From Hyphomicrobiaceae bacterium (GTDB lineage: Bacteria > Pseudomonadota > Alphaproteobacteria > Rhizobiales > Hyphomicrobiaceae): a stretch of DNA of 37,548 bases. Under the pieces are notes generated by a model, which was not told the origin of the DNA, made no database searches, and was given only the letters and a program-made list of their open reading frames with translations. The stretch lies in assembly GCA_017353825.1 (NCBI GenBank), contig JAFMSC010000001.1, positions 1 to 37,548 of the forward strand, read 5' to 3'. Every line of letters starts with the position of its first letter. Position 1 is the stretch's first letter. The translations under genes and the position numbers were made by a program. Positions 5,538 to 35,439 of the stretch are shown here, piece by piece.

Positions 5538-6584
5538 CTATCGCCGCGTGTAGCCCTTGAGCCGGTCGAGCAGATCCTTGAGCGGGTCGTCGACCCAGGC
5601 GTAGGTGAGAAAGTCGCGGTGGTCGGCGTCCTTAGGAGCGGGCAGGAAGGCGACGCTGCCCGGCCGCAACCGCGGCTCCAGTGACGTGGCAACTGGGATG
5701 TGCCGTCCAGCGAGCACCTTCTGCAGCTGGTCATTGCGTGCCTGGGTGGAGTGCGTGTAGGTGCTCACGAAGAAGGCGGACTTCTGTCTGGCTACCCAGT
5801 CGGCGAAGGTGTCAAGCTCACCGTAGAGGGCGTCGAACAACACCACACCTCGCAGACGGTTACCGATGCCGCCGTGGTGAACGCACGAGGCCGTCGTGAG
5901 GTAGCCGCCGCTGTAGGCCACGATCACCACCGGCATGCTGGCGAACGATCTCACCGAGCGCGGGTCGCCGTGCAGGCGCGCTAGGTACTGCGCGGCCTCA
6001 CCCAGGAAGCGGGCGAAGGCGCCCGGTTCCCAGAACTTGCCGGCGCTGGAGTCGGCGGCGTTGAAGGCGAGCTGCGGCGCCACCAGCGCAGCGTTGATGC
6101 CCGAGGCGGAAATCTGCGCCGGCACCTGCTGGCGCAGATAGACATCGTCGGCGAGCTTGGCACCGTGGCCGTGGAAGAAGACGATGAGGAGGCTCGGCCG
6201 CCGGATGTCGAAGCCCTTGGGCAAGTGCAGCAGCACCTGGCGGTCGCTGTAGGTCTCGTCCTCCCAGTAGATGCGGCCGGCGCCGGTGCGATGGCCGCGC
6301 CGACCGTTCTCGTCCACGTCCAGAAATGGCTTGTTGGTGCGCGGTACCAGCCCGTGATACGGGAACGGGGCCGTCTCGAACTCCACGAGCTTGGAGCGTG
6401 CGCGAGCGAGAGGGCCGCTGCGAGCCTGCACCGGGTAGGGAACGGGGATGCTCTCGACGGCGGTCTCAGTTCGCGCGGCCGGCGCCCCGGCAGCTCTGCC
6501 GGCGACCGCCAGTCCCCCCAAGAGGAGCAGCGCGGCGGCGATCCGCGCGGGGGAACCCCCGTATCTTCCCCTAGGCTCCTGCAA
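5538..6584 (-). CDS. Secreted alpha/beta-hydrolase-like protein, function unknown
   Basis: TTG start (the only in-frame start after an upstream stop). Signal peptide 'RIAAALLLLGGLAVAGRAAGA'. 'LLIVFFHGHG' and 'VVIVAYSGGY' resemble oxyanion and nucleophile-elbow regions of alpha/beta hydrolases. Confidence 0.65.
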   Translation of the reverse strand: MQEPRGRYGGSPARIAAALLLLGGLAVAGRAAGAPAARTETAVESIPVPYPVQARSGPLARARSKLVEFETAPFPYHGLVPRTNKPFLDVDENGRRGHRTGAGRIYWEDETYSDRQVLLHLPKGFDIRRPSLLIVFFHGHGAKLADDVYLRQQVPAQISASGINAALVAPQLAFNAADSSAGKFWEPGAFARFLGEAAQYLARLHGDPRSVRSFASMPVVIVAYSGGYLTTASCVHHGGIGNRLRGVVLFDALYGELDTFADWVARQKSAFFVSTYTHSTQARNDQLQKVLAGRHIPVATSLEPRLRPGSVAFLPAPKDADHRDFLTYAWVDDPLKDLLDRLKGYTRR

Positions 6585-6778: not shown

Positions 6779-8149
6779 ATGACCGCTGGACGCTTGGGCA
6801 AGATTGCATCTGGCGGCGCCTCTGAGAAGGCTGCGCCGGTGACGGCGGCGACGGCCGTGGCGTTGGCCGTGGCGAACATGATCGGCATCGGCGTGTTCAC
6901 CAGCCTGGGGTTTCAGGTGCGGGACCTGCCCTCCGGCTTCGCGCTCATCCTGCTGTGGGTGGTGGGCGGCATCATCGCGCTCTGCGGAGGGCTCTCCTAT
7001 GCCGAGCTGGCGACCGCGTTTCCCCGCTCAGGTGGCGAGTACAACCTGCTGTCGCACATTTATCACCGCGCGGTGGGGTTCCTCGCGGGCTGGCTGTCGG
7101 CGACGGTTGGCTTCTCGGCGCCGACGGCGTTGGCGGCCATGGCCTTCAGCGGCTACCTCGTGGGCGCCTGGCCCGGCGGCGTGCCGCCGTGGGTGACGGT
7201 GGCGCTGGCCCTGGCGGTGGTCTGGATCGTCACGCTCGTGCACCTCATCGGCACCAAGGGCGCCAGCACGTTCCAGAACGTGTCCACCCTGTTCAAGGTT
7301 GCGCTTATCGTCGGGTTCATCGCCATGGCCGGCGCCTACGGCCATCGCCAGCCGCTGTCGTTCGCGCCCTCTGCGGGGGACATCTCGCTCATCGTGAGCC
7401 CGCCGTTCGCCGTCAGCCTGGCCTATGTGATGTACTCCTATGCCGGCTGGAACGCCGTGACCTACATTGCCGGCGAGGTGCGCGACCCGCGCCACACGGT
7501 CCCGTTCTCGGTCATCGCCGGCGTCGCCGTCGTTACGCTGCTCTACGTTGCCCTCAACGCCGTGTTTCTCTACACCACGCCGCTGTCCCAGCTCGCGGGG
7601 CAGATCCCTGTGGCTGCCATCGCCGGCCAGCACATCTTCGGCGCCACAGGCGCGCGCATCGTCGATGCGGTCATCTCAATCGGCCTGGTGCCGTCGATCA
7701 GTGCCATGATGTGGCTCGGACCGCGCGTGACCATGGCGATGGGGGAGGACTTCCCGCTGCTGTCAGCCTTCGCGCGCAAGACCCGGAGCGGGGTGCCGGC
7801 ATTGGCCGTCATTTTGCAACTGGCTGTGGTGACTTTGCTACTGTTCACGCAGAGTTTCGAGTCGATCGTCGAGTTCATACAATTTAGTTTAACGATCTCG
7901 TCGTTCCTTACCGTACTGGGCGTCATCGTGCTTCGCTTCACGCAGCCGGCACTGCCCCGCCCCTACAAGGTCTGGGGCTATCCGATCACTCCGCTTCTGT
8001 TCCTGGCCGTGTCGCTGTTCATGATGATCAACCTCGTGCTGGAAAGACCCGCGCAATCACTGACCGGGGTCGGCATTATGCTGTCGGGCTTGATTGTCTA
8101 CGCCGTCTCGGTCAGACATTCCCGCGGTAATATCCCAGGGAGTTCCTGA
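6779..8149 (+). CDS. APC-family amino acid permease
   Basis: 456 aa, about 12 hydrophobic segments. The N-terminal 'ANMIGIGVFTSLGF' and 'LSYAELATAFPRSGGEY' motifs are typical of APC transporters. Confidence 0.9.
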   Translation: MTAGRLGKIASGGASEKAAPVTAATAVALAVANMIGIGVFTSLGFQVRDLPSGFALILLWVVGGIIALCGGLSYAELATAFPRSGGEYNLLSHIYHRAVGFLAGWLSATVGFSAPTALAAMAFSGYLVGAWPGGVPPWVTVALALAVVWIVTLVHLIGTKGASTFQNVSTLFKVALIVGFIAMAGAYGHRQPLSFAPSAGDISLIVSPPFAVSLAYVMYSYAGWNAVTYIAGEVRDPRHTVPFSVIAGVAVVTLLYVALNAVFLYTTPLSQLAGQIPVAAIAGQHIFGATGARIVDAVISIGLVPSISAMMWLGPRVTMAMGEDFPLLSAFARKTRSGVPALAVILQLAVVTLLLFTQSFESIVEFIQFSLTISSFLTVLGVIVLRFTQPALPRPYKVWGYPITPLLFLAVSLFMMINLVLERPAQSLTGVGIMLSGLIVYAVSVRHSRGNIPGSS

Positions 8150-8152
8150 GTC

Positions 8153-9322
8153 ATGCATGCAACCCGGAGAACGGCGCTCTGGCTGGCCACCCGGAGAACG
8201 GTGCTCTGGCTGGTTCTCGCCTTCGTATCGGTCGCACCGCCCGTGTGCGCCGCCGAGACGGACAGGGCCGAGCCGGTCAAGACCGCCGAGACGGCAAACG
8301 ACGTCGCGCGGTTCATCGCCGGGTTGGAGCCGGCCGCGGATTCGCCGCTGGCACCCTTCACGCACGATGCCTCCTGGCAGCAGCACGCCAAGTCGCTGGA
8401 CGCTGCCTGGGCGAGACTGGAGGAGGAGCGCCTGACGAAGATCCGGGCCTGGGCGGTGGCCAATCTGATCGCGCCGCAGCCGGTCGTGCTCTACATGTTC
8501 AGCGGGCCCGATTTCCTCTACCTCGACGCCTTCTTTTCCGACCGCACCACCTATGTGATGAGCGGGCTGGAGCCGATCGGCCAGATCCCCACCATCGAGT
8601 CGGCGCCGCGACGCTCGCTCGGGCCGGCGCTGGCGGGGCTGCGCGCGTCTGTGGGCACCGCGCTCAACTACAGCTTCTTCATCACCAGCCAGATGAAGAG
8701 CAGCCTCGCCGCCACCAGGCTCAACGGCGTGCTGCCCGTCCTCTACCTGTTCCTTGCGCGTTCGGGTAAGACCATCCAGGAAGTTACCCTGATCGGCGTC
8801 GACAAGGATGGCGCCGTGGTCGCGCCCGGCGCGAAAGACGCAACGCCCGGAGTAAAGATCACCTTCGCCGGCCACGACGGGCGCACCCAGACGCTCTACT
8901 ATTTTCAGACCGACCTGTCCGATGGCGGCGTCAAGCACAGCGGGTTCCTCAAGTTCTGCGAGCGACTGGGCCGGGCGGATGTGTTCATCAAGAGCGCTTC
9001 GTACCTGCTGCACACCGATAACTTTGCCATGGTGCGCGGGTTTCTGATCGACCACGCCACAGCCATCGTGCAGGACGATTCGGGCATTCCGGTACGCCAC
9101 TTCAAGGCCCAGGATTGGCAGCTGCGGCCTTTCGGCAAGTATCTCGGGCCGATCGCGGTGTTCTACGGGATGTACCAGAGAGGCCTGAGCGAGGTATTTC
9201 GGCGATCGAACCCACCGAAGCTGGAGTTCGGGGTGGGCTATCGCTGGCGGCCGCAGGAATCCAACCTCCTCCTCGCCGTCAGGACCCCGCTCGACGGCAT
9301 GGCGCAGGAGACCCCCAAGTAG
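8153..9322 (+). CDS. Secreted protein of unknown function
   Basis: ATG lies 3 nt after the permease stop. Signal peptide (LWLVLAFVSVAPPVCAA). Balanced amino-acid composition and high GC3, whereas the overlapping 505-aa minus-strand ORF is Arg/Pro/Gly-rich. Confidence 0.7.
   Translation: MHATRRTALWLATRRTVLWLVLAFVSVAPPVCAAETDRAEPVKTAETANDVARFIAGLEPAADSPLAPFTHDASWQQHAKSLDAAWARLEEERLTKIRAWAVANLIAPQPVVLYMFSGPDFLYLDAFFSDRTTYVMSGLEPIGQIPTIESAPRRSLGPALAGLRASVGTALNYSFFITSQMKSSLAATRLNGVLPVLYLFLARSGKTIQEVTLIGVDKDGAVVAPGAKDATPGVKITFAGHDGRTQTLYYFQTDLSDGGVKHSGFLKFCERLGRADVFIKSASYLLHTDNFAMVRGFLIDHATAIVQDDSGIPVRHFKAQDWQLRPFGKYLGPIAVFYGMYQRGLSEVFRRSNPPKLEFGVGYRWRPQESNLLLAVRTPLDGMAQETPK
8162..8215. repeat. 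In-frame tandem duplication, 27 bp x2, inside the signal-peptide n-region
   Basis: ACCCGGAGAACGGCGCTCTGGCTGGCC / ACCCGGAGAACGGTGCTCTGGCTGGTT, encoding TRRTALWLA/TRRTVLWLV. Confidence 0.95.
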
Positions 9323-10549: not shown

Positions 10550-11641
10550 CTACTTGACGATCCTGCGCAACAGCACGGTGTTGTCGAACACCAGGCTGAT
10601 CGTCCAGATCCAGCGTGCCCCCATGAACGCCTCAGGATACCGCCAATAGGCGGGAACCCCCACGATGCCGACGTCCTGGTCGAGGTACTCGAAGGCCCTT
10701 GGCCAGGCGGAGTCGTCGAATTCTGGCGCCATCCAGCCGTCGGGGATCGGGTAGTGAATGGCAAAGCAAAACTCCCTGCACGTGGGCATCCTGGCCAGGG
10801 GGTGAATGCGACCTCCAAGGTGCGACGTGTCGTGAATGTTGCCGTACTCGACGACGTCGTCGGGGTGCTGCAGGGGCGCGATATAAAACGACTGCGCCTT
10901 CCAGGTGCTGTCGGTCACGGTGCCATCGGAGAACCGCGCCACGAAGCCGCCGTCGCCGGAATGCCAGGGGTTAGCCTGGAATACCTCCATTCCGAGCCCT
11001 AGCTTGTCCTCCCAGTCCTGAGCCAGCACGGCGATGGTGTAGGGCCGCTTCACGCGGAAGCGAACCACATGCGAGTTGAACGGCGTGTACGGGGTCACGT
11101 CCACGCCGATCAGCTTGCCGTTGATGTAGAGCTCGAAATAGTTGTCGGCCACCAGGAACCCGGTGACGACCTCGCCGTCCTTGTCAATCTCGATGATCGG
11201 CACTTTATTGAGGTCGACCTCGGCCAGGCTTTTCGGCATGACTTTGGTGCATTCGTTGTAGAGGTCGGGAAGCTTGGGCGCGGTTGCATAGTTGGTGGCC
11301 GCCGGCACCGTGAGTTTGGTGCCGTCCTTGGCCGTAATCTCCCCCACCGCGTTCTTGCGCAGGTTCATGCCCGGCTCGGGGAAAGCGCACGGGATCAAGT
11401 CCTCCGTCATCGTTTTCCCCAGGCCCTGCGTGACGATGCGCGTTGGCGGGGGATTGGCCGCGGGCAGTGGCATCTTGGTCGGTGGCTTCGCCTGCTGCGC
11501 CTCAACGGAGGCCGCCGTGAGCAAAGCCGCCATGAGTAAAGCCGCCATGAGCAGAGCCGCCATCAGCAAGGATGCCGCGAGCAAGAGCGGGCTGGGATAA
11601 AGCGCGCCAACGCATGCTCGGACTTGCCCTCGGGCGGTCAT
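10550..11641 (-). CDS. Secreted protein of unknown function (beta-rich)
   Basis: Start moved to the ATG at 11639-11641, which has GGAG 6 nt upstream. Very long hydrophobic leader, then a Trp/Tyr/Asp-rich mature region. No family recognised. Confidence 0.72.
   Translation of the reverse strand: MTARGQVRACVGALYPSPLLLAASLLMAALLMAALLMAALLTAASVEAQQAKPPTKMPLPAANPPPTRIVTQGLGKTMTEDLIPCAFPEPGMNLRKNAVGEITAKDGTKLTVPAATNYATAPKLPDLYNECTKVMPKSLAEVDLNKVPIIEIDKDGEVVTGFLVADNYFELYINGKLIGVDVTPYTPFNSHVVRFRVKRPYTIAVLAQDWEDKLGLGMEVFQANPWHSGDGGFVARFSDGTVTDSTWKAQSFYIAPLQHPDDVVEYGNIHDTSHLGGRIHPLARMPTCREFCFAIHYPIPDGWMAPEFDDSAWPRAFEYLDQDVGIVGVPAYWRYPEAFMGARWIWTISLVFDNTVLLRRIVK
11511..11585. repeat. In-frame tandem repeat, 15 bp x5, inside the signal-peptide hydrophobic core
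   Basis: GCCGCCRTGAGYARA units. On the coding (minus) strand they give LLAAS-LLMAA-LLMAA-LLMAA-LLTAA. Confidence 0.95.
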
Positions 11642-12265
11642 GTGTTCTCCCCTGGCGATTGCACCGCCGCGCGGCCCTCGAGCGGTCGCACCCGGCAAGC
11701 TGACCGGCCAGCCTACAGAGCACCGATGCCATCGGCAAGGTCAGTCTCGATGCTGACGGGAAGATCGCGGAGCAAAGCCATTGCCCATGTTGTCATTGAG
11801 GACACGTCAAAGTTGGATGCCCCGCGGCGGCCGCGAGGGCCGCTTGCGTGGTGCCGGGATCATCAGCAAGGGTCGGCGCCGACTGCGCGGAGCCGAGCGC
11901 CTCCGGACGGACGAGGTGATCGGCTGCCCATCTGGGCTGGCTTGCCGCTGCTCGACGCGGTGCTCCTCCTAGCCCATGACCTCGCGGAGCGCCGTCGTTG
12001 ATGAGGTGATGGATTGTAGGCATCTCGGCCGCCGGCCTCCGACGGGATGTGCCACACCGGCTTCCAGTTGACCCGCTCGCCTCCATCGCCACGGACGTGA
12101 CGCCATGGCACCGCCACGCGCCAGGGCGATCAGGCCTGCCGTCGGCAGTGTGCCCGTCGCGCAACGCCGTTGGGTCGATAGCGGCTGCCCGGCAATCGGC
12201 CCTGGTCAACGCGGCCAAGATTTCGGAAGCTCGCCACAGCTGGGACAAGGGGATTGGGGGGGGCG

Positions 12266-13810: not shown

Positions 13811-14881
13811 ATGCCCACCGCCCTGCGCCGCCCGCTGCCGCCGCTCAACGCCTTGCGTGCCTTCGAGGCCACGGCCCGCCACCTGAGCTTCTCCAAGGCC
13901 GCCGAAGAGCTGCACGTCACGCCCGCCGCCCTCAGCCACCAGATCCGGGGGCTTGAGGATCTGTTGGGTCTAAAGCTGTTCCACCGTCGCGCGCGCTCGA
14001 TCGAGCTCACGGAGCCCGCACGCCTCATCTATCCCGGCGTGCACACCGGCTTCGAGGCCATCCGTGGCGCCATGGAGCGGTTGGGTCTCGGCCGCGACGA
14101 TCGCATTCTGGTGGTCAGCTCCACTCCAGGCTTCACAGCCAAGTGGCTGGTGCCGCGGCTTTACCGCTTCCTTGGCGGCCACCCCGACATCGAGACGCGC
14201 ATTAGCGCCAGCGTCGGCTATGCCAATCTCGCCAGTGATGGGGTGGACGTGGGCATCCGGCTGAGCCCCGGCGTGCATCCGGACCTTTATGTCGAGAAGC
14301 TCTCCGACGAATGGCTGCTGCCGCTGTGCAGCCCGCGCCTCCTCAACGGCGAGCGCCCGCTCCGGTCGCCGCAGGACCTTGCACAATTCCCCCTGATCCA
14401 GGTCGACCTGCCGGGCCTCGTGCCGACGTGGGGGGACTGGGCGCGGCTCGCCGGCATCGAAGGCGTCGACACCACGCACGGACTGCGCCTCAACGTTGCC
14501 GACCACGCACTCGATGCTGCCAGCGAGGGCATGGGCGTGGTGCTGGCCTACAAGATGGTGGCTGCGCGCGACATCGCGCGCAAGCGCCTGGTGTCGCCGT
14601 TCGGACCGGAAATGCTCCTGCCGGGCCGCGCCTACTACTTCGTGTGCGCCCGCGGGCGGGAGAAGCGGGCGCCGGTCAAGGCCTTCCGCGACTGGGTGTT
14701 CGCCGAGATGGAGGAGACCCATGCCAGCCTCAAGGACGCGCTGGCGGGATCAGACGCGCGCTCCGACCCTGCGGGCGTGACCCCGGTGGGCCAAGCCATG
14801 GGCATCGGCACCGGCGCATCCCGGCGTTCCGGCAGGCAGCGCAGGGCCGCCAGGCCGGCCGCAGAAGGGGAGCGCGCATGA
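13811..14881 (+). CDS. LysR-family transcriptional regulator (GcvA-like)
   Basis: 'LPPLNALRAFEATARHLSFSKAAEELHVTPAALSHQIRGLE' is a classic GcvA-type HTH, followed by a substrate-binding domain. About 50 aa of extra Ala/Arg-rich tail. Confidence 0.9.
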   Translation: MPTALRRPLPPLNALRAFEATARHLSFSKAAEELHVTPAALSHQIRGLEDLLGLKLFHRRARSIELTEPARLIYPGVHTGFEAIRGAMERLGLGRDDRILVVSSTPGFTAKWLVPRLYRFLGGHPDIETRISASVGYANLASDGVDVGIRLSPGVHPDLYVEKLSDEWLLPLCSPRLLNGERPLRSPQDLAQFPLIQVDLPGLVPTWGDWARLAGIEGVDTTHGLRLNVADHALDAASEGMGVVLAYKMVAARDIARKRLVSPFGPEMLLPGRAYYFVCARGREKRAPVKAFRDWVFAEMEETHASLKDALAGSDARSDPAGVTPVGQAMGIGTGASRRSGRQRRAARPAAEGERA

Positions 14882-19288: not shown

Positions 19289-20086
19289 CTATCCCACGCC
19301 GACCAAAGCCTGCAGCGCGCTGCACGGCGCAACGCCGGCTTGCGGTGCAACCTGAGCCTCGGGATAGCGCAGCGAGGTGCGTACCGTGACCTGCCAGATC
19401 TTGTCGGTGGCAGAGCTCCGCTGCGCGGCGGGCAGCGCCTCCAGACGCTGCCATTCGCGCGCGAAGTCGTACAGACGCGCCCGGCGCGGCCGGTATCCCG
19501 AGTGCGCGACGCCCAGCCGTTCCACATAGTCGGGGTCGGCGAGCTTATCGATCAGACTAGGGCTGACCACCATGAGAACCAGCCTGGCGACCTCGTCGCG
19601 CAGCCCGCTGCCATCGTGGTCCTGCTCCGCGTAGGCGGCAAAGCCGAACAGCGTCTCGTCATCGCGCGTGGGGCGGCCGTGCACGAAATCCATGTTGGCC
19701 GCCGGGTCGAGCCCGGTGATCATGTCCTTGCCCTCGTCCATCATCATGCGATGCGCAACCCAACTCGGAAGGCGCAGGAGGCCCGGATGCTTCGCCGCTT
19801 CCTTGCGCACATGCCGAACGAGGTTGGGGTTTGTGAACCACCTCTCCATGGCCGAGGCGCTGCCCTGGCTGATGATGTGCAGCACGTCTCTGCCAGCCTC
19901 GGCCCTGATGCCGTACATCTCGATCACGATCGAGCTGGAGACGAGATCCTCCCGCCTGAAGCGGACCCAGCCTCGATGCTCCGACCAGCGGCCGATGATG
20001 AAGCTGGCAGCGGCGATGGCCCCGGCGATCACCGCCGACAGGACGCGCGCAAGCTCGCCCGTCAGATCCAGGCCGAAGAGCTGCAC
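19289..20086 (-). CDS. Hypothetical protein with one N-terminal transmembrane helix
   Basis: ORF 19289..20101. GTG at 20084-20086 has GGGGGAGG 5 nt upstream. TM 'VLSAVIAGAIAAASFIIG'. The remaining ~230 aa have balanced composition and no family I recognise. The overlapping plus-strand ORF looks like an antisense shadow. Confidence 0.55.
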   Translation of the reverse strand: MQLFGLDLTGELARVLSAVIAGAIAAASFIIGRWSEHRGWVRFRREDLVSSSIVIEMYGIRAEAGRDVLHIISQGSASAMERWFTNPNLVRHVRKEAAKHPGLLRLPSWVAHRMMMDEGKDMITGLDPAANMDFVHGRPTRDDETLFGFAAYAEQDHDGSGLRDEVARLVLMVVSPSLIDKLADPDYVERLGVAHSGYRPRRARLYDFAREWQRLEALPAAQRSSATDKIWQVTVRTSLRYPEAQVAPQAGVAPCSALQALVGVG

Positions 20087-21134
20087 CGTGGCCTCCCCCA
20101 AACCATGTCAAGAACAGCATGGTGCGGGACATGAGCCTGCACCGACCTTCCCAAGGCGCGGCGAATCTGCGCCAATCCGGGCTTCAGGACAAGGCGCGCA
20201 GCGCCTGGACGGCCCTGGCAGCTGGTCGTCCACGATCGGAGCAAGTTCCAGGCCGCAAAGTTCGTAGCCTCCTTCTATGGGCTTGCCGGCGCGAGCTGTC
20301 GCAAGCCGGCCTCCGAGCCCGACGCCAGCCCGGCCATGGACGAGGCGCGGCTGCGCCACGTCCAACGCACCGGCACGAGGCCGCCCACCGCCGGCAGCAC
20401 CGGGTGCTGATCAAGCGCGGGATCGTGTCGCTAGGCGCGAGGGGACCGGCGGGGACGCCGCGGCGGAGTTCCTTGAAGCGCTGCCGATGTCGGAGGATAC
20501 GGATGGGCGTCGCGCACGCCCCATCGCGCCGCCTATCCCGAGAGCGTCGCGGGCGGGTGGCAACAGAACAAGGAGGAGGTGGCGTTCGCCGACGAGGAGC
20601 GAGGCTCTGGCGGCGGGCGAATTGCGGATTGGTTTGGGGCGGCGCCAAGGGTGCCATACGCGCGCATGCGGGCGAAAGCCGCGCCGGAGGATCGGCGACG
20701 GTCAAGCCGCCGGCCAGGGTTTCAAGCCGCAGCGCAGAAAGCCACGCCCGACCGCCCGAATGTAAACAGAAAATTCTGCAGCGCCTCGGTTAGGTCACGC
20801 TGCAAGGCTTGCCTATCCCGCTCATCCGCGCTCGTCCTTCTCGGGACGAGCCAAGCTTGACCCGTCTGTCCCCAGTCGCTGGGAGCACCTCGCCGCCCCT
20901 TGCGTTCGTTTGCGTCGATCTGTCACAAGCCTGGCGCATCTGGGGACGAGGCGCGATGCCACGGTGAACCGAGGCACGTATAGAGCCGTGCCAGCTTGCA
21001 ACTGTGGCGAGGCTGCCGTCGGTGCGCTGCCATGCAAGCCGAGGCCAAGGTCGAAGCTGGAAGGGTGGGAGCGCGCAGTCGCTTGCGTGAGATAAACCAG
21101 GTGCCGGTTGCTCATACTCCGGGAGGTCCACGTC

Positions 21135-29251: not shown

Positions 29252-29362
29252 AGAGTTGGTGGCTAGGGTTCCGGCCCTGCGGGGCGTCTGGTCCGAGAGC
29301 TGCCGCCCGGCGGTGCCGCATCGCCGCCCGGGTGCACGGCGGGACAAAAGCCCGGGAGACCT
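29252..29362 (+). promoter_or_regulatory. Guanidine-I riboswitch aptamer (ykkC-yxkD class, subtype 1)
   Basis: All three conserved blocks are present in the right order and spacing: GGCTAGGGTTCCGG (29261-), CTGGTCCGAGAG (29288-), and ACGGCGGGACAAAAGCCCGGGAGA (29335-29359). It lies ~75 nt upstream of the ABC substrate-binding gene. A 9-bp hairpin AGGACTGGC/GCCAGTCCT follows (29371-29400) with no U-tract, then RBS GAGGGA at 29423. Confidence 0.85.
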
Positions 29363-29436
29363 CGGTGGCCAGGACTGGCTGCGCTCGGTCTCGCCAGTCC
29401 TCGGTCGGAGCAGCGAACGAACGAGGGATATGACCC

Positions 29437-30498
29437 ATGAAGCGCGTTGCCTCTCTCCTTCTTTCCATGACGCTCGCTGTCGGCGCCGGCTCGCCGGTCT
29501 GGGCGGTGTCGAAGAAGGACTTCAACATCGCGTGGACGATCTATGTGGGCTGGATGCCTTGGCCATATGCGGTCGAGACCGGCATCGTCAAGACGTGGGC
29601 CGACAAGTACGGCATCACCATCAACGTCACGCAGATCAACGACTACGTGGAGTCCATCAACCAGTACACAGCCGGCAAGTTCGACGGTGTGACGTTGACC
29701 AACATGGACGCTCTCACGATCCCGGCCGCAGGCGGGGTCGACACCTCGCTCATGATCGTCGGCGACTTCTCCAACGGCAACGACGGCATCGTGCTCAAGC
29801 AGGGCAAGAGCATCGCCGATATCAAGGGCCAGAAGATCAACATGGTGGAGCTGTCGGTCTCCCATTACCTGCTGGCTCGGGCGCTCGCCGGCGCCAAACT
29901 CAAGGAGGCCGACATCAAGGTGGTCAACACCTCCGATGCCGACATCGTCGCCGCCTTCAAGGCCCCAGACTCGACGGCTGTGGTGACCTGGAACCCGCAA
30001 CTCATGGAGGTGAAGGCCGAGCCCGGCGTAACGCTGGTGTTCGATTCAAGCAAGATCCCCGGCGAGATCATCGACACCATGGGCCTCAACACCCAGACGC
30101 TAAAGGACAACCCCAGCCTCGGCAAAGCGCTCGTCGGCATCTGGTACGAGACCATCGCGCTGATGGCGGACGCTGGCGAGAAGGGCAAGGCGGCGCGGGA
30201 AGCCATGGCCAAGCTATCAGGGACCGATCTCGCCGGCTTCGAGGCGCAGCTCAAGACCACGCGCATGTTCTACACGGCCAAGGATGCCGTGGCCTTCAGC
30301 ACCAGCGACGACCTCGCCAAGACCATGGACCTCGTACGCACCTTCTGCTTCGAGCACAACCTCTTGGGCGACGGCGTAAAGAGCAAGGATGCCATCGGCA
30401 TCGCCTTCCCCTCGGGGCAGGTGCTCGGCAACAAGGCCAACGTGAAGCTGCGCTTCGACGCCTCCTACATGAAGCTGGCGCTGGAGGGGAAGCTCTGA
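29437..30498 (+). CDS. ABC transporter periplasmic substrate-binding protein, NitT/TauT family, urea-carboxylase-associated type (candidate guanidine binder)
   Basis: Signal peptide, then 'FNIAWTIYVGWMPWPYA...KTWADKYGI...QINDYVESINQYTAGKFDGVTLTNMDALTIPAAGGVD...GDFSNGNDGIVLK...ELSVSHYLLARAL', which matches from memory the binding protein found next to urea/guanidine carboxylase genes. Confidence 0.9.
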   Translation: MKRVASLLLSMTLAVGAGSPVWAVSKKDFNIAWTIYVGWMPWPYAVETGIVKTWADKYGITINVTQINDYVESINQYTAGKFDGVTLTNMDALTIPAAGGVDTSLMIVGDFSNGNDGIVLKQGKSIADIKGQKINMVELSVSHYLLARALAGAKLKEADIKVVNTSDADIVAAFKAPDSTAVVTWNPQLMEVKAEPGVTLVFDSSKIPGEIIDTMGLNTQTLKDNPSLGKALVGIWYETIALMADAGEKGKAAREAMAKLSGTDLAGFEAQLKTTRMFYTAKDAVAFSTSDDLAKTMDLVRTFCFEHNLLGDGVKSKDAIGIAFPSGQVLGNKANVKLRFDASYMKLALEGKL

Positions 30499-30711: not shown

Positions 30712-31533
30712 ATGCGCCGCGCCATGAACATCGCGCCGGAGCGGACCGGGCGGCTGGCGCTGGCGCTGCTGCCGTTCGCGCTGATCGCCCTCGTCTACGT
30801 GGCGGGCTCCGCGCAGCGGCGGGCGGTGAACCCCAACGACAAGCTGCTGCCGCCGGTTTCGGAGATGGCGGACGCGGTGCACCGGGCGGCGCTTGAGCCG
30901 GACCGGCGCTCGGGCGAGATCGTGCTGTGGACGGACACCTCGGCCAGCTTGGGGCGCCTGGGCGCTGGCTTGGGATTGGCCACGCTGATCGGGCTCACCC
31001 TGGGCCTGGCCATCGGCGTGCTGCCACTGGTGGCGGCGGCGCTGGCGCCGCTCGTCGCCGTCATCTGTATGGTGCCGCCGATGGCCATTCTGCCGGTGCT
31101 TTTCATCGTGTTCGGCCTGGGCGAGCTCTCGAAGGTGGTGCTGATCGTGATCGGCGTGGCGCCGTTCCTGGTGCGCGATCTCGCCTTTGCCGCGGCGCGG
31201 CTGCCCACGGAGCATCTCGTCAAGGCCCAGACGCTCGGCGCCTCCACCTGGCAGGTGGCCACGCGGGTGGTGGCCCCGCAGATCATGCCACGCCTAATCG
31301 AGGCGGTGCGACTGTCGCTCGGGCCCGCATTCCTGTTCCTGATCTCGGCCGAGGCCATCGCCGCCGAGAGCGGGCTCGGCTACCGCATCTTCCTGGTCCG
31401 GCGCTATCTCGCCATGGATACGATCCTGCCCTACGTGGCCTGGATCACGCTCATCGCCTATGCCATGGACCTGGGGCTGGCGCGCCTGTCGCGGGCAGCC
31501 TTCCCCTGGGCTCAAGCAGACGAGGGGCGCTGA
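30712..31533 (+). CDS. ABC transporter permease (NitT/TauT family)
   Basis: GGGAGGG RBS, about 6 TM segments, and an EAA-like loop 'AQTLGASTWQVATRVVAPQIMPRLIEA'. Confidence 0.9.
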   Translation: MRRAMNIAPERTGRLALALLPFALIALVYVAGSAQRRAVNPNDKLLPPVSEMADAVHRAALEPDRRSGEIVLWTDTSASLGRLGAGLGLATLIGLTLGLAIGVLPLVAAALAPLVAVICMVPPMAILPVLFIVFGLGELSKVVLIVIGVAPFLVRDLAFAAARLPTEHLVKAQTLGASTWQVATRVVAPQIMPRLIEAVRLSLGPAFLFLISAEAIAAESGLGYRIFLVRRYLAMDTILPYVAWITLIAYAMDLGLARLSRAAFPWAQADEGR

Positions 31534-32300
31534 TGGGCGCGATCTCGGTGCGCAACGTGTGGGTGGAATACGGCGACCAGATCGTGCTGGAGCGCATCAA
31601 CTTGGAGATCGCTTCCGGCGCGTTCGTGTCGATCGTCGGCCCTTCGGGATGCGGCAAGAGCACGCTCCTGCGCCTCCTCTTGGGGCAGGAAAAGCCCACG
31701 CGCGGCACCATCCTGATCGACGGCAGGCCGCTGCCGGACGAGCCTGGGCCCGATCGCGGTATCGTGTACCAGCGCTATTCGGTGTTTCCGCACCTCACCG
31801 TTCTCGGCAACGTACTCATCGCCTACGAGTTCGCCGGCAGTCGATTGTTGGGCCGGCTCATGGGCCGCGCGCGCCGCGCAGCCATCGACGAGGCCCTTGC
31901 GCTCATCAAGGCTGTCGGATTGGCGCTCCATGCCAAGAAATATCCAAGCACCCTGTCGGGCGGCATGCAGCAACGGCTGGCAATTGCCCAGGCGCTCGCG
32001 CGCAAGCCGCGGGTCCTGCTGCTCGACGAGCCGTTCGGCGCGCTCGATCCGGGCATTCGCGCGCATATGCACGAGCTTATTCGCCCGCTGTGGCGCGAGC
32101 ATGGTATGACCGTCCTCATGGTCACCCACGACATCAAGGAGGGCTTCGCGCTCGGCACAAGGCTCATCGTGCTCGACAAATGGCGCGACGACCCGCAGGC
32201 CGCCGAGCGGTTCGGTGCCGTCATTACATACGATCTCGACCTCACCCGCGACAACGCCGGGCCGGTGCGCTTCTGCAATGAGCCGACCGTCGCAAGCTAA
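31533..32300 (+). CDS. ABC transporter ATP-binding protein
   Basis: ATG overlaps the permease stop (TGATG). Walker A 'GPSGCGKST', signature 'LSGGMQQR', Walker B 'LLLDEPFGALD'. The ORF part upstream of 31533 overlaps the permease and was rejected. Confidence 0.92.
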   Translation: MGAISVRNVWVEYGDQIVLERINLEIASGAFVSIVGPSGCGKSTLLRLLLGQEKPTRGTILIDGRPLPDEPGPDRGIVYQRYSVFPHLTVLGNVLIAYEFAGSRLLGRLMGRARRAAIDEALALIKAVGLALHAKKYPSTLSGGMQQRLAIAQALARKPRVLLLDEPFGALDPGIRAHMHELIRPLWREHGMTVLMVTHDIKEGFALGTRLIVLDKWRDDPQAAERFGAVITYDLDLTRDNAGPVRFCNEPTVAS

Positions 32301-32334: not shown

Positions 32335-32922
32335 ATGGAACCTGTCGAGACTCATAATAGCCGGCTGTTCATTCGTCAGGTTCGCTCCCGTGACGTGGAG
32401 GACGCGCTCGTCTACCGGGACGGCGCAGAGTTCAGCCGCTATCTTCAGCACATCCCTCGCCCTTTCACGCGGCGGCACGCCGAGGCGTCGGGGGCGCGAA
32501 ACAGGGTGGAGCCCTGGGATCGGTCCGCGACCTTTAGGGAGGCGTTGACGGGAACCGTGATAGGCACAGTCAACCTCGATGTTGACCAAACCCACGGTAT
32601 GGCCATGCTGGGCTCCGCCATCGGCCACGCGCAGGGGGGAAAGCGAAGCGGCTGGGAAGCTGCCCCGGCGGCGGTTGGGTGGGGTCTCGGCGCGTTCGAT
32701 CTCGCCAACCTCTGGGGCACGACGGATGTGCGCAATGGGCGTGGGCGGCAGGCCGCTAGGCGATCGCAGCGGCTGATCGAGAAGCTCGCAAGTAGGCGCG
32801 CGGCGACGTTCCTGCCACGGCTGGCTCGCGATGGGCGACCGGATAAGCTCGATCATGGCTCTCCGCGCCCAAGTGCCTCTCAATACCTCAATGCTTGGGT
32901 AGCCCAAGGAGCAGCCGCATGA
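32335..32922 (+). CDS. GNAT-like (RimJ/RimL-type) acetyltransferase ORF, divergent and possibly degenerate
   Basis: 'SRLFIRQVRSRDVEDALVY...EFSRYL', 'VIGTVNLDVD...LGSAIGHAQGGKRSGWEAAPAAVGWGLGAFDLANLW', 'RSQRLIEKL...LARDGRP' follow GNAT topology. The acetyl-CoA motif is altered (GGKRSG where RimJ/L-type GNATs have WGKGxA). Visibly more A/T-ending codons than the neighbours. The stop overlaps the next ATG (ATGA). Confidence 0.5.
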   Translation: MEPVETHNSRLFIRQVRSRDVEDALVYRDGAEFSRYLQHIPRPFTRRHAEASGARNRVEPWDRSATFREALTGTVIGTVNLDVDQTHGMAMLGSAIGHAQGGKRSGWEAAPAAVGWGLGAFDLANLWGTTDVRNGRGRQAARRSQRLIEKLASRRAATFLPRLARDGRPDKLDHGSPRPSASQYLNAWVAQGAAA

Positions 32923-34127
32923 TCTTTGACCGATCAATCTGCCGTTCCCGTAAGGCCGGGCTCAGGCCGCCGCGCGATCAGGCTCCTTGCCACCACCCGG
33001 ACTTCGACAAGCTCAACAGCCAGGGCTGGAAGGCGCTGGAGGCGGAGGCGGGTCTCTCCGAGGACGGTTGGCGCCGCGAGCAGAAGTGGGCGCTCGACAT
33101 GGGGCTGCCGGGTGCGGAGAGCCTCACCGACAGGTCCATCCCAACCTTCGCCCGCGGGGAGCTTCCCCACTTCGCGGGCATCAACACCTTCCTAAAGGCG
33201 CCCTACGTGGAGAACATCCGCGATGTCGGCAAGTACGACGCCGCCGTGATCGGCATCCCCTTCGATGCAGGCACCACCTACCGCCCTGGCACCCGCTTCG
33301 GCCCCCAGGGCATCCGCCGCATCTCGGCGCTCTATACGCCCTACAACTATGAGCTGGGCGTGGACCTCAGGGAGCAGATGACCTTGTGCGATGCCGGCGA
33401 CGTGTTCACCATCCCCGCCAACCTGGAGAAGAGCTTCGACCAGATCACACGCGGGGTGGCGCACGTGTTTTCCTCCGGCGCGCTGCCGTTGATGCTGGGC
33501 GGTGACCACTCGATCGGTTTCCCCTGCGTGCGCGGCATCGCCCAGTGCACATCAAAGAGGATCGGCATTGTGCATTTCGATCGCCACATCGACATCCAGG
33601 AAAAGGACCTGGACGAGCGCATGCACACCACGCCGTGGTACTGGGCCACCAACCTGCCCAACGTGCCCGCCGCCAACCTGGTCCAGCTCGGCATCGGCGG
33701 CTGGCAGGTGCCACGCTACGGCGTGGCAGAGGCGAGGAAGCGCGGCACCAACGTGCTCACCATCGCCGATATCGAGAAGATGGGCCTCGACAAGGCCGCC
33801 GAGATCGCCCTGGAGCTGGCGTGGAAGGACGCCGACGCGGTCTACATCTCCTTCGACGTGGATTCGGTGGACTGCGGCTTCGTGCCAGGGACCGGCTGGC
33901 CCGAGCCTGGCGGCTTTCTGCCGCGCGAGGCACTGAAGCTCTTGGGGCTGGTGGCCGCCGAGGGCATTTGCGGCCTGGAGGTCGTGGAGGTGTCGCCACC
34001 TTACGATACATCCGACATCACCGCTCTGCTTGGTGTGCGCGTGGGCGTTGAGGCGCTGGGCTCGCTGGTCGCCCACGGCAGGCTCGGCAGTCAAAAGGCG
34101 CTCATCGACAATCCGGTCGCGTATTGA
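32919..34127 (+). CDS. Arginase/agmatinase-fold ureohydrolase, long form (candidate guanidine or guanidino-compound hydrolase)
   Basis: AAGGAG sits 7 nt upstream of the ATG at 32919. 'LMLGGDHSIGFP', 'IVHFDRHIDI', 'YISFDVDSVDCGFVPGTGWPEPGG' provide the full His/Asp binuclear-metal ligand set. About 95 aa precede the first conserved block ('FAGINTFLKAPY'), which is longer than in SpeB-type agmatinases. Confidence 0.9.
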   Translation: MIFDRSICRSRKAGLRPPRDQAPCHHPDFDKLNSQGWKALEAEAGLSEDGWRREQKWALDMGLPGAESLTDRSIPTFARGELPHFAGINTFLKAPYVENIRDVGKYDAAVIGIPFDAGTTYRPGTRFGPQGIRRISALYTPYNYELGVDLREQMTLCDAGDVFTIPANLEKSFDQITRGVAHVFSSGALPLMLGGDHSIGFPCVRGIAQCTSKRIGIVHFDRHIDIQEKDLDERMHTTPWYWATNLPNVPAANLVQLGIGGWQVPRYGVAEARKRGTNVLTIADIEKMGLDKAAEIALELAWKDADAVYISFDVDSVDCGFVPGTGWPEPGGFLPREALKLLGLVAAEGICGLEVVEVSPPYDTSDITALLGVRVGVEALGSLVAHGRLGSQKALIDNPVAY

Positions 34128-34135
34128 GGCCCGCC

Positions 34136-34663
34136 ATGCATCGCGATCATGACCACGCCCATGACCACGCCCACCGCCGGAGCGACAGTGATGGCCACCA
34201 CGACCTCGCCCAGGATGACGGCCACCACCACGACCATCGCCACGTAGGGCCCGGCCACAACCACAGGCCTACGCTCAGCAGCGTGGCGCAGTGGCAGGTG
34301 CCGCACCTTCACCCGAACGAGGCCCGACCCAGCACCCAGGGCGAGGCCGACCTCGACCAGGTGGAGGCCGCCTTCATCGAGGGCTTCCTCGCCGCCAGCG
34401 ACCCCACCAGCTTCCTCCGCCTCGCGGGCATCCCCTTCAGCATGACGGCGGGCGACGGCGCGTCGCTGTGGCTCCTGCGCGTGGAGACCGAGGTTGTGGC
34501 CGACATCGGCGCCCTCACGCCGCACCTCGGCGGCGGCTCGTTCCGCTACGACCCGCTGCCAGCCAACCTCGTCTCGCGCCGTCGCCGCCTGCGTTTTGTC
34601 TATTTCGATGGGACCGGGCTGAGGGCCTTGACCTTTGTCGACGTGCGACAGGGAGCCCGATGA
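34136..34663 (+). CDS. Uncharacterised protein with His/Asp-rich N-terminus (candidate metallochaperone)
   Basis: ATG lies 8 nt after the ureohydrolase stop, with GAGG 6 nt upstream. The first 45 aa carry about 17 His ('HRDHDHAHDHAH...GHHDLAQDDGHHHDHRHVGPGHNH'). The remainder is a ~130-aa globular-looking domain with very high GC3. No family recognised. Confidence 0.7.
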   Translation: MHRDHDHAHDHAHRRSDSDGHHDLAQDDGHHHDHRHVGPGHNHRPTLSSVAQWQVPHLHPNEARPSTQGEADLDQVEAAFIEGFLAASDPTSFLRLAGIPFSMTAGDGASLWLLRVETEVVADIGALTPHLGGGSFRYDPLPANLVSRRRRLRFVYFDGTGLRALTFVDVRQGAR

Positions 34664-34718
34664 CGAAGGGCGGCAGGGTGTCGCTGCCGAACGAGGTCGA
34701 CGCCCCTCGCAGTCGCCC

Positions 34719-35219
34719 CTACGCGGCGGCTCCGGCCGCCGGGTGGAACCGGCGCACCGCGAGGAAGCCGAGCGCCAGGAACAGCACCAGCACGGCAATC
34801 TGCGTGACCGCGAATGGCGGCTCGGATTGGGTGGGCGCCAGCGGCTGCAGGATGGCGAGCTTCTGGAATGCCTGCACCACGCCCACGAATACGTTGAGAT
34901 AGAGGGCCGCGACCGCGGTGGCGACGTAGACCCAGCGCCACGCTCCGGAGAGCCGGAAGGCATAAAGCGCGAGCAGCGCCACCGCGAGCAAGACGAGCGA
35001 GATGGTGCCGACCACGTGTGATGGCAGCAGCCCGCTAAAGGGGAACATGAACCCCGTCACACTGGTGAGGAGGGTCGTGGCCAGAAACAGCGCCGTCCAG
35101 CCACCGAGCCTTTGCGAGGCCAGCATGCCGTAGAAAACCACGAGCCCGGAGAGGATCCCCACGAGGCTGATGACGACGTGCAGCGTCGTGAACGCCGAAG
35201 CCGACAACCCCAGGGTCAT
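34719..35219 (-). CDS. Integral membrane protein (about 5 TM), unknown function
   Basis: ATG at 35217-35219 with GGAGG 6 nt upstream. Consecutive hydrophobic helices (e.g. TTLHVVISLVGILSGLVVFYGML, WTALFLATTLLTSVTGFMF, VVGTISLVLLAVALLALYAF). Confidence 0.7.
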   Translation of the reverse strand: MTLGLSASAFTTLHVVISLVGILSGLVVFYGMLASQRLGGWTALFLATTLLTSVTGFMFPFSGLLPSHVVGTISLVLLAVALLALYAFRLSGAWRWVYVATAVAALYLNVFVGVVQAFQKLAILQPLAPTQSEPPFAVTQIAVLVLFLALGFLAVRRFHPAAGAAA

Positions 35220-35439
35220 GGGCACCCTCCGCTAGAGCCCGCAACATAGGCGATTTTCGGGTCAACTTCCACCGGCACCTGGTGGCACCGAGGGGTGGGC
35301 CCGGCGCAATGGGCGATGCGGGGGCCGCCCGGCATAACCTATTGGGGGCTGCCTCTGTTCCCTTGGCGCGGTGGCGAGATATGCTTCGCCCGAAGCCCGC
35401 GCGCGCCTCGTGTGGCAGCTCCCGGAGGGACCCCGAGCA

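Follow-up and report, generated by a model that had tools for sequence, protein, structure and literature searches.

A family of nickel-dependent guanidine hydrolases was described in 2022, and one riboswitch class, guanidine-I, responds to free guanidine. In Synechocystis sp. PCC 6803, such a riboswitch is followed by gdmH, ghaA, and ghaB, with a NitT/TauT-type ATP-binding cassette (ABC) importer, gimABC, on its own promoter; the gdmH product Sll1077 (GdmH) is Ni2+-dependent and specific for free guanidine (PMC12186494, PMC12704784), and GimA, encoded in the same locus, binds guanidine with a KD of ~97 nM (PMC12704784). A second characterized member is the guanidinase of the comammox bacterium Nitrospira inopinata (PMC11410670), which is also encoded behind a guanidine-I riboswitch. 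Here, we compare these systems with a 37,548-nucleotide (nt) stretch of DNA from a Hyphomicrobiaceae bacterium (GenBank assembly GCA_017353825.1, contig JAFMSC010000001.1, positions 1 to 37,548 of the forward strand), which we refer to in its entirety as the window, and focus on a gene at 32919..34127 that an earlier note, made from the letters alone, had proposed to encode a guanidine (or guanidino-compound) hydrolase with unusual features. Taken as a whole, the locus is best explained as a guanidine-assimilation operon encoding a GdmH-type guanidine hydrolase together with a proposed metal-loading partner, an interpretation that we consider highly probable. The most interesting feature of the locus, which the earlier note overlooked, is an obligately linked gene for a His-rich protein directly downstream of the enzyme gene.

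The open reading frame (ORF) at 32919..34127 on the + strand is, judging from its sequence, a gdmH orthologue in a known family that public sources misannotate as agmatinase, and not a new long-form variant. When all PDB sequences were searched by phmmer with the window GdmH as query, the top match was Synechocystis Sll1077 (7ESR/7OI1; 548 bits, E 8e-164), followed by the N. inopinata guanidinase (9FEK; 522 bits, E 1e-155), with GbuA (174 bits, E 4e-50), proclavaminate amidinohydrolase (PAH; 167 bits), GpuA (153 bits), metformin hydrolase subunits (~125 bits), and the E. coli-type agmatinase (~114 bits) scoring much lower. Over 357 residues, N-terminal helices included, the window enzyme is 65% identical to Sll1077; for the N. 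inopinata enzyme, the figure is 60% over 364 residues—the two characterized guanidinases are themselves 67.5% identical—and for GbuA, GpuA, and PAH it is 33-36%. A phylogeny, suggested as a check in the earlier note, agrees with these scores. In a neighbor-joining tree built on 297 well-aligned columns from the window GdmH, 12 alphaproteobacterial homologues, the two characterized guanidinases, GbuA, GpuA, and PAH—a small outgroup set, SpeB and arginase being compared by score only—the GdmH clade including the window enzyme is split from GbuA, GpuA, and PAH in 100/100 bootstrap replicates, and the alphaproteobacterial sequences form a separate subclade, also with 100/100 support. Identity as a classical agmatinase, GbuA, or GpuA is thus rejected on curated cutoffs, score gaps, and phylogeny, and the candidate assignment made earlier, a guanidine hydrolase distinct from agmatinase and guanidinobutyrase, is supported by homology, phylogeny, specificity residues, and regulatory context.

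The public annotation nevertheless calls for comment, because it would make the window enzyme an agmatinase of the polyamine pathway (SpeB). Homologues are labeled "agmatinase" or "agmatinase family protein" in public sources, the best NCBIfam names are agmatinase models, and 7ESR/7OI1 and 9FEK were both deposited under the name "agmatinase 2." However, the window protein scores under both curated NCBIfam agmatinase cutoffs (159.8 vs 174.3 for TIGR01230 and 205.2 vs 302 for NF002564), E. coli-type agmatinase structures reach only ~114 bits, and its motifs read DRH and GTGW in place of DAH and GTGT. Sll1077 bore the same annotation, yet does not hydrolyze agmatine (PMC12186494). We therefore consider a SpeB function extremely improbable.

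The gene itself is well defined. Its reading frame extends from an ATG at 32919 to a TGA at 34125-34127, encoding a product of 402 residues; a Shine-Dalgarno sequence (AAGGAG) lies 8 nt 5' of the ATG, homologues of 401-403 residues share the start position, and GC by codon position (.64/.46/.87) is like that of the real genes of the window, which has 67% GC. Two ORFs on the opposite strand were set aside: 34091..34963 was rejected as coding for its atypical GC by codon position, and 33552..34094, which lies wholly within gdmH, was treated as non-coding. The earlier reading of the product, an enzyme of the arginase fold in which none of the six metal ligands is missing, proved correct, with every motif where it had been placed and a Pfam Arginase match (PF00491) at 2.8e-74. 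The ligands are His197 in GGDHS (residues 194-198), Asp221, His223, and Asp225 in FDRHID (residues 220-225), and Asp313 and Asp315 in FDVDSVD (residues 312-318). In the N. inopinata enzyme, the metal is held by H182, D207, H209, D211, D299, and D301; T105, H222, W313, and E344 have been proposed to play an important part in hydrolyzing guanidine, and T105 and W313 correspond to T97 and W305 of Sll1077, which are specificity determinants (PMC11410670). When a tag-related shift of 2 residues in the PDB numbering is taken into account, each of the ten residues is identical in the window enzyme (H197, D221, H223, D225, D313, D315, T120, H236, W327, and E357), Thr120 being the equivalent of Sll1077 T97 and Trp327, within GTGWPEPGG, that of W305. 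The window enzyme shares these residues and the Arg of DRH with both characterized guanidinases, and with Sll1077 also the entire GTGWPEPGG motif.

Three residues that had been singled out as unusual are all present, but they differ in their meaning. Arg222, in place of the Ala of DAHxD, is found in 15/15 GdmH-clade sequences examined, whereas GbuA, GpuA, and PAH carry Ala, and Trp327 is likewise clade-wide. Only the Cys at position 319 (DSVDCGF) is specific to a subclade: the residue is Pro in GbuA, GpuA, and PAH and Ala in Sll1077 and the N. inopinata enzyme, while Cys is kept in 145/146 alphaproteobacterial relatives. The N-terminal extension that had also been remarked upon does exist—the Pfam domain begins only near residue 107, and GbuA can be aligned from residue 79—but from residue 30 onward it is common to the characterized guanidinases, with alignments starting at residue 34 of the window enzyme for 7ESR and at residue 30 for 9FEK. 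It forms a helical segment ahead of the arginase core, of which GWKALEAEAGLSEDGWRREQKWALDMG (GWKALEAEAG...ALDMG) makes up residues 35-61, and its helices align with those of the characterized guanidinases; the first ~29 residues are without counterpart in the solved guanidinase chains. Because Arg, Trp, and the extension from residue 30 are shared with Sll1077 and the N. inopinata guanidinase, the window enzyme is to be seen as an orthologue of a known enzyme. Sequence comparison marks these three features as hallmarks of the GdmH clade and Cys319 as a hallmark of the alphaproteobacterial subclade only. GbuA, GpuA, and PAH, in comparison, share the arginase fold and the six metal ligands and can be aligned from about residue 79, but their motifs are DAH, GTGT, and DP where the window enzyme has DRH, GTGW, and DC, and they have no N-terminal extension.

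Within the first ~30 residues, the window enzyme contains an HHPDF segment (residues 25-29; window 32991..33005), which may represent, in addition to Cys319 in place of Ala, a difference from Sll1077. HHP[DNS][FY] is found at this point in 144/146 alphaproteobacterial relatives. In the alignments, HHP[DNS][FY] and Cys319 mark the subclade that carries the His-rich partner, and the HHPDF segment could be a candidate docking or metal-handover site.

From homology to two solved and assayed guanidinases, we propose with high confidence how the enzyme would work. A binuclear center would be held by His197, Asp221, His223, Asp225, Asp313, and Asp315, the metal being Ni2+ by homology and the center most probably dinickel; a bridging hydroxide would attack free guanidinium to yield urea and ammonium, and Thr120 and Trp327 would close the pocket such that unsubstituted guanidine alone fits. 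On this view, the window enzyme would hydrolyze free guanidine and depend on nickel; contextual support for nickel comes from the His-rich partner and, in related loci, from a HupE/UreJ-family gene (putative nickel permease). A substrate among the substituted guanidines (methylguanidine, dimethylguanidine, agmatine, a guanidino acid, or taurocyamine) would be conceivable in so far as the arginase superfamily shifts substrate readily, the Ni-dependent relatives DmgH and MefH act on substituted guanidines (PMC11399263), and the alphaproteobacterial subclade departs from the characterized enzymes at Cys319 as well as over its first ~30 residues. However, the pocket-closing Thr and Trp that confer specificity are conserved (PMC11410670), identity is 60-65% to two guanidinases vs 33-36% to GbuA and GpuA, and metformin hydrolase subunits reach just ~125 bits. 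Furthermore, the riboswitch ahead of the operon belongs to a class that senses free guanidine, and the transporter encoded next to it is GimA-type, which leaves a substituted substrate quite improbable.

The regulatory and transport context points the same way. The earlier note had placed the gene behind a guanidine riboswitch, and there is indeed a guanidine-I (ykkC) aptamer at 29252..29360 on the + strand, forming the operon leader, which matches Rfam RF00442 over model positions 1-107/107 (82 bits, E 2.6e-13; gathering score, 63). Between this aptamer and gdmH, which is 3.56 kb downstream on the same strand, lie three ABC-transporter genes and a GNAT-like ORF. The first of these genes (29437..30498, +) encodes a substrate-binding protein (NCBIfam TIGR03427 ABC_peri_uca, 551 bits vs a cutoff of 334; Pfam NMT1 and NMT1_2), the second (30712..31533, +) the importer permease (Pfam BPD_transp_1, 3.2e-16, and synteny with related loci), and the third (31533..32300, +) the ATPase (Pfam ABC_tran, 3.5e-34), whose start codon was checked directly and whose ATG overlaps the permease stop codon. 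gdmH thus comes fifth among the ORFs of the operon, or fourth if conserved genes alone are counted, and no terminator-like hairpin was found on the + strand between 28900 and 35300. A guanidine-I riboswitch and a NitT/TauT-type ABC importer are also features of the Synechocystis gdmH locus, but in the window the order is riboswitch, importer, and gdmH; NtcA control, which is cyanobacterial, is not expected for the window operon. In the comammox locus, there is an APC permease instead of an ABC importer (PMC11410670).

We tallied this arrangement in 160 related loci from genomes and metagenomes using an exact-match aptamer motif. The order riboswitch, ABC transporter, gdmH occurs in 62/160, and in a further 10/160, several of them from Ancylobacter, the riboswitch is directly upstream of gdmH. 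No exact-match motif was present in 24/160 loci with at least 4.5 kb of upstream sequence, 62/160 were too short upstream to judge, and 2/160 had no scorable same-strand GdmH match. We infer riboswitch control and co-transcription of gdmH in the window from synteny. In the operation that we envisage, binding of guanidine to the riboswitch would turn on expression of the operon, a GimABC-like importer would take up guanidine, and GdmH would hydrolyze it. Incidentally, a metagenome-assembled genome of the Hyphomicrobiales (locus L013) has an Rfam match to the 5' ureB small RNA (86 bits; 14475-14761) at a distance of ~4 kb downstream of its gdmH-partner pair, and therefore urease genes would be beside the guanidinase locus there, fitting a route from guanidine via urea to ammonia.

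A feature peculiar to the window is the GNAT-like ORF (32335..32922, +; 195 residues; Pfam Acetyltransf_3, 4.2e-9) between the ATPase gene and gdmH, whose stop codon overlaps the gdmH ATG. It is Arg/Ala-rich, has an atypical GC by codon position (.56/.70/.70), and accounts for an ATPase-to-gdmH interval of 618 nt, compared with ~78 nt in other loci. It was missing, at both DNA and protein levels, from 88/88 other loci compared, and for this reason we rejected it as a component of the system. This ORF is probably a decaying insertion. It may affect riboswitch control of gdmH in the window, and it is because of this insertion that we take riboswitch control there no further than inference.

The second major finding is the gene that follows gdmH. 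It starts 8 nt past the gdmH stop codon (34136..34663, +), has a GAGG 6 nt ahead of its ATG and a clean coding signature (GC by codon position.75/.48/.87), and is followed in the window by a gene on the opposite strand. Its linkage to gdmH was assessed from both sides. Starting from the partner in 80 species genomes, a GdmH orthologue was directly upstream on the same strand in 77/77 testable loci, three of the 80 having been left out of the count because their contigs end <700 nt from the partner gene. Starting from GdmH in 80 metagenome loci, 73 of which have at least 450 nt of downstream sequence, the partner was directly downstream in all 73/73, as it was in 3/3 separate look-ups (Mesorhizobium, Stappia, and a 4-Mb contig). 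The pairing even holds in a divergent, Roseibium-type subfamily, in which the C-terminal domain of the partner has 35% identity to its window counterpart, compared with 76% for the adjacent GdmH: the partner was in the same position in 3/3 look-ups, corresponding to four distinct loci. The pairing of gdmH and partner is therefore strict in both directions and has been kept through strong divergence of the partner. In the Roseibium-type loci (L169-L173), a small ORF of 69-74 residues with no Pfam match directly follows the partner gene or overlaps its end (8462-8674 in L170, 5774-5983 in L171, and 8494-8718 in L173), and the window has no equivalent of it, since the gene that comes next there is on the opposite strand.

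The partner, a protein of 175 residues, combines an N-terminal tail rich in His with a segment bearing GHN and QWQxPH and, at the C terminus, an α/β domain of ~105 residues. Its N terminus reads MHRDHDHAHDHAH, with 15 His among the first 57 residues, and across the family the median is 15 His in a tail of ~43 residues. The tail is followed by invariant GHN and QWQxPH motifs, and then, in the C-terminal domain, by invariant SFLRL..PF, LLRVE, and P.LGG..RYDPLP. The family is small, with 242 representatives among 1.84 billion proteins when clustered at 50% identity; at 90% identity, there are 1721 clusters, none with a name other than "hypothetical." Its named sources are all alphaproteobacterial: Bradyrhizobium, Ancylobacter, Pseudolabrys, Xanthobacteraceae, Geminicoccaceae, Bosea, Mesorhizobium, Stappia, and Roseibium/Labrenzia. 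Three long representatives (P0324, P0343, and P0364) that could be taken for GdmH-partner fusions look like frameshifted gene calls and were discarded as such.

No known family or fold could be matched to this protein. It had no Pfam or NCBIfam match, an alignment-wide Pfam scan at E<=1 gave no match common across 30 family members, and a profile search of PDB sequences returned nothing at E<=10. An AlphaFold (AF2) model of the C-terminal domain, computed from a 91-sequence alignment with a mean local confidence (pLDDT) of 86.6 and a global score (pTM) of 0.71, confidently predicts a sheet with a long hairpin, onto which two helices pack. Foldseek against the PDB gave a best E of 0.48 with a first, weaker model and of 0.65 (template-modeling score, TM, 0.31) with the pLDDT 86.6 model. 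A COMMD-like fold was considered and discarded, as the matches obtained with the first model had a probability <=0.21 and were not high-ranking with the better one.

How the enzyme would obtain its metal is the question on which the partner bears. The characterized GdmH, MefH, and DmgH require nickel chaperones for full activity (PMC12704784, PMC11399263), and ghaA/ghaB in cyanobacteria and hypA/hypB in metformin-hydrolase operons hold an operon niche comparable to that of the partner gene (PMC12704784, PMC11399263). In the window, in contrast to Synechocystis, there is no HypA/HypB-like GhaA/GhaB, and the Pfam-less His-rich gene follows gdmH instead. No HypA or HypB/CobW domain was found in the 29 scanned window ORFs, nor within ~5-8 kb on either side in nine annotated loci, and no nickel chaperone, urease, or nickel transporter genes were found among the same 29 ORFs. 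A HupE/UreJ-family gene (PF04955, putative nickel permease), also absent from the window, is next to the gdmH-partner pair in L085 (9789-10391) and in L032, L044, L059, L064, L068, L069, and L081; it follows the partner in Mesorhizobium and, in Ancylobacter and Bosea loci, lies a short way upstream of the riboswitch. Operons for the Ni-dependent metformin hydrolase include a gene for a HupE homologue that has been described as a transporter for nickel uptake (PMC11399263). Because of its strict linkage, its composition, its ghaA/ghaB- and hypA/hypB-like operon niche, the HupE neighborhood, and the absence of known chaperone genes nearby, we propose a metal-loading role for the partner and consider it, with moderate confidence, a dedicated nickel-delivery or maturation factor for GdmH. 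In this scheme, Ni2+ would be bound or kept in reserve by the His-rich tail, and docking on apo-GdmH and transfer of the metal would fall to the GHN/QWQxPH segment and the C-terminal domain, so that the partner would substitute for the HypA/HypB-like GhaA/GhaB maturases of cyanobacteria.

Histidine-rich nickel chaperones and storage proteins are known from other systems, including UreE with its His-rich C-terminal tail, CooJ, the Bradyrhizobium HypB with its His-rich N terminus, and Hpn, and the partner resembles them in combining a disordered His-rich tract with a small folded domain and in being encoded beside a nickel-enzyme gene. This likeness to nickel metallochaperones—a His-rich tract and linkage to a nickel-enzyme gene—is functional only. 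No sequence or fold relationship to UreE, CooJ, HypB, or Hpn was detected, and in the partner the tract is N-terminal and precedes the family-specific GHN and QWQxPH motifs. GhaA/GhaB and the HypA/HypB of metformin/dimethylguanidine hydrolases are similar to the partner in being encoded by accessory genes beside a Ni-dependent ureohydrolase, often with a HupE/UreJ-family gene nearby; unlike them, the partner has neither the HypA zinc ribbon nor the HypB/CobW GTPase domain. Since it has no Pfam match at all, any function that it performs would be independent of a nucleoside triphosphatase (NTPase). This raises the possibility, which we put forward tentatively and at slightly less than even chances, that the partner founds a new class of NTPase-independent nickel metallochaperones or maturation factors for dinickel ureohydrolases, with a fold that has no detectable relative in the PDB, and that it replaces GhaA/GhaB in the alphaproteobacterial GdmH lineage. 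A literature search found no paper linking a His-rich protein to a guanidine hydrolase and none on alphaproteobacterial guanidinases, with the caveat that a prior mention in Funck et al. 2022 remains possible.

Several points weigh against our interpretation of the locus. First, the case for the window enzyme and its alphaproteobacterial orthologues comes from sequence and gene context. Second, the aptamer is 3.56 kb off, the locus-unique GNAT-like insertion splits the transporter genes from gdmH, and folding of 29330..29445 (z = -0.3) revealed no U-tract terminator, such that an expression platform was not found. Third, the role of the partner is based on linkage, composition, and a nearby HupE gene, and no sequence or structural likeness to any known metallochaperone (HypA, HypB, UreE, SlyD, or CooJ) was found. 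Fourth, His-rich tracts are not selective for one metal, such tails binding Zn, Co, and Cu too. Fifth, crystals of the N. inopinata guanidinase held a mixed Ni/Mn site, no chaperone is known from comammox genomes, and the enzyme works, though under-metallated, without a known helper (PMC11410670); therefore, nickel dependence and the need for a chaperone are not universal in the clade.

The last three of these points would also be accommodated if the enzyme is a guanidinase but the partner is not a nickel-insertion factor, acting instead as a general metal buffer or store, as a regulatory or stabilizing subunit of the GdmH hexamer, or as a factor for Mn, Zn, or Co. The partner is also similar neither to HypA, HypB, or UreE nor to any solved fold. 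However, its pairing with gdmH is strict in both directions and persists through strong divergence, it holds the operon position that ghaA/ghaB occupy in cyanobacteria (PMC12704784), and a HupE/UreJ-family gene is adjacent in several relatives. We therefore regard these other roles as unlikely, though still to be taken seriously, and favor a partner that loads GdmH with nickel.

Other ORFs in the window are mentioned for completeness. The ORF at 34719..35225 on the - strand, which converges on the end of the operon, encodes a multi-pass membrane protein of 168 residues; its coding signature is strong, and Pfam gave no match. At E<=1e-4, Pfam also gave no match for four more ORFs of 270-390 residues (8153..9322, +; 10550..11698, -; 5538..6584, -; and 19289..20101, -), all of which have a clean coding signature. 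One of the four lies directly downstream of the gene (6779..8149) for an amino-acid permease of the APC family.

By itself, the window enzyme adds little to what is known, but with it the guanidinase family, which was characterized in 2022-2024, now reaches into the Alphaproteobacteria of soil and marine habitats. It also shows that the name "agmatinase" is borne by thousands of database entries that almost certainly represent guanidinases, which matters for annotating nitrogen cycling in soil. To our knowledge, nickel acquisition by arginase-fold enzymes is known for HypA/HypB-type helpers only. For the comammox guanidinase, whose genomes encode no known chaperone, the mechanism of nickel acquisition was explicitly left unresolved (PMC11410670), whereas the window has a dedicated candidate accessory gene. 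The partner is therefore a useful lead, being a candidate, open to direct testing, for a second way of inserting nickel, one that needs no GTPase, and it may serve as a tool for obtaining fully metallated guanidinase in heterologous hosts.

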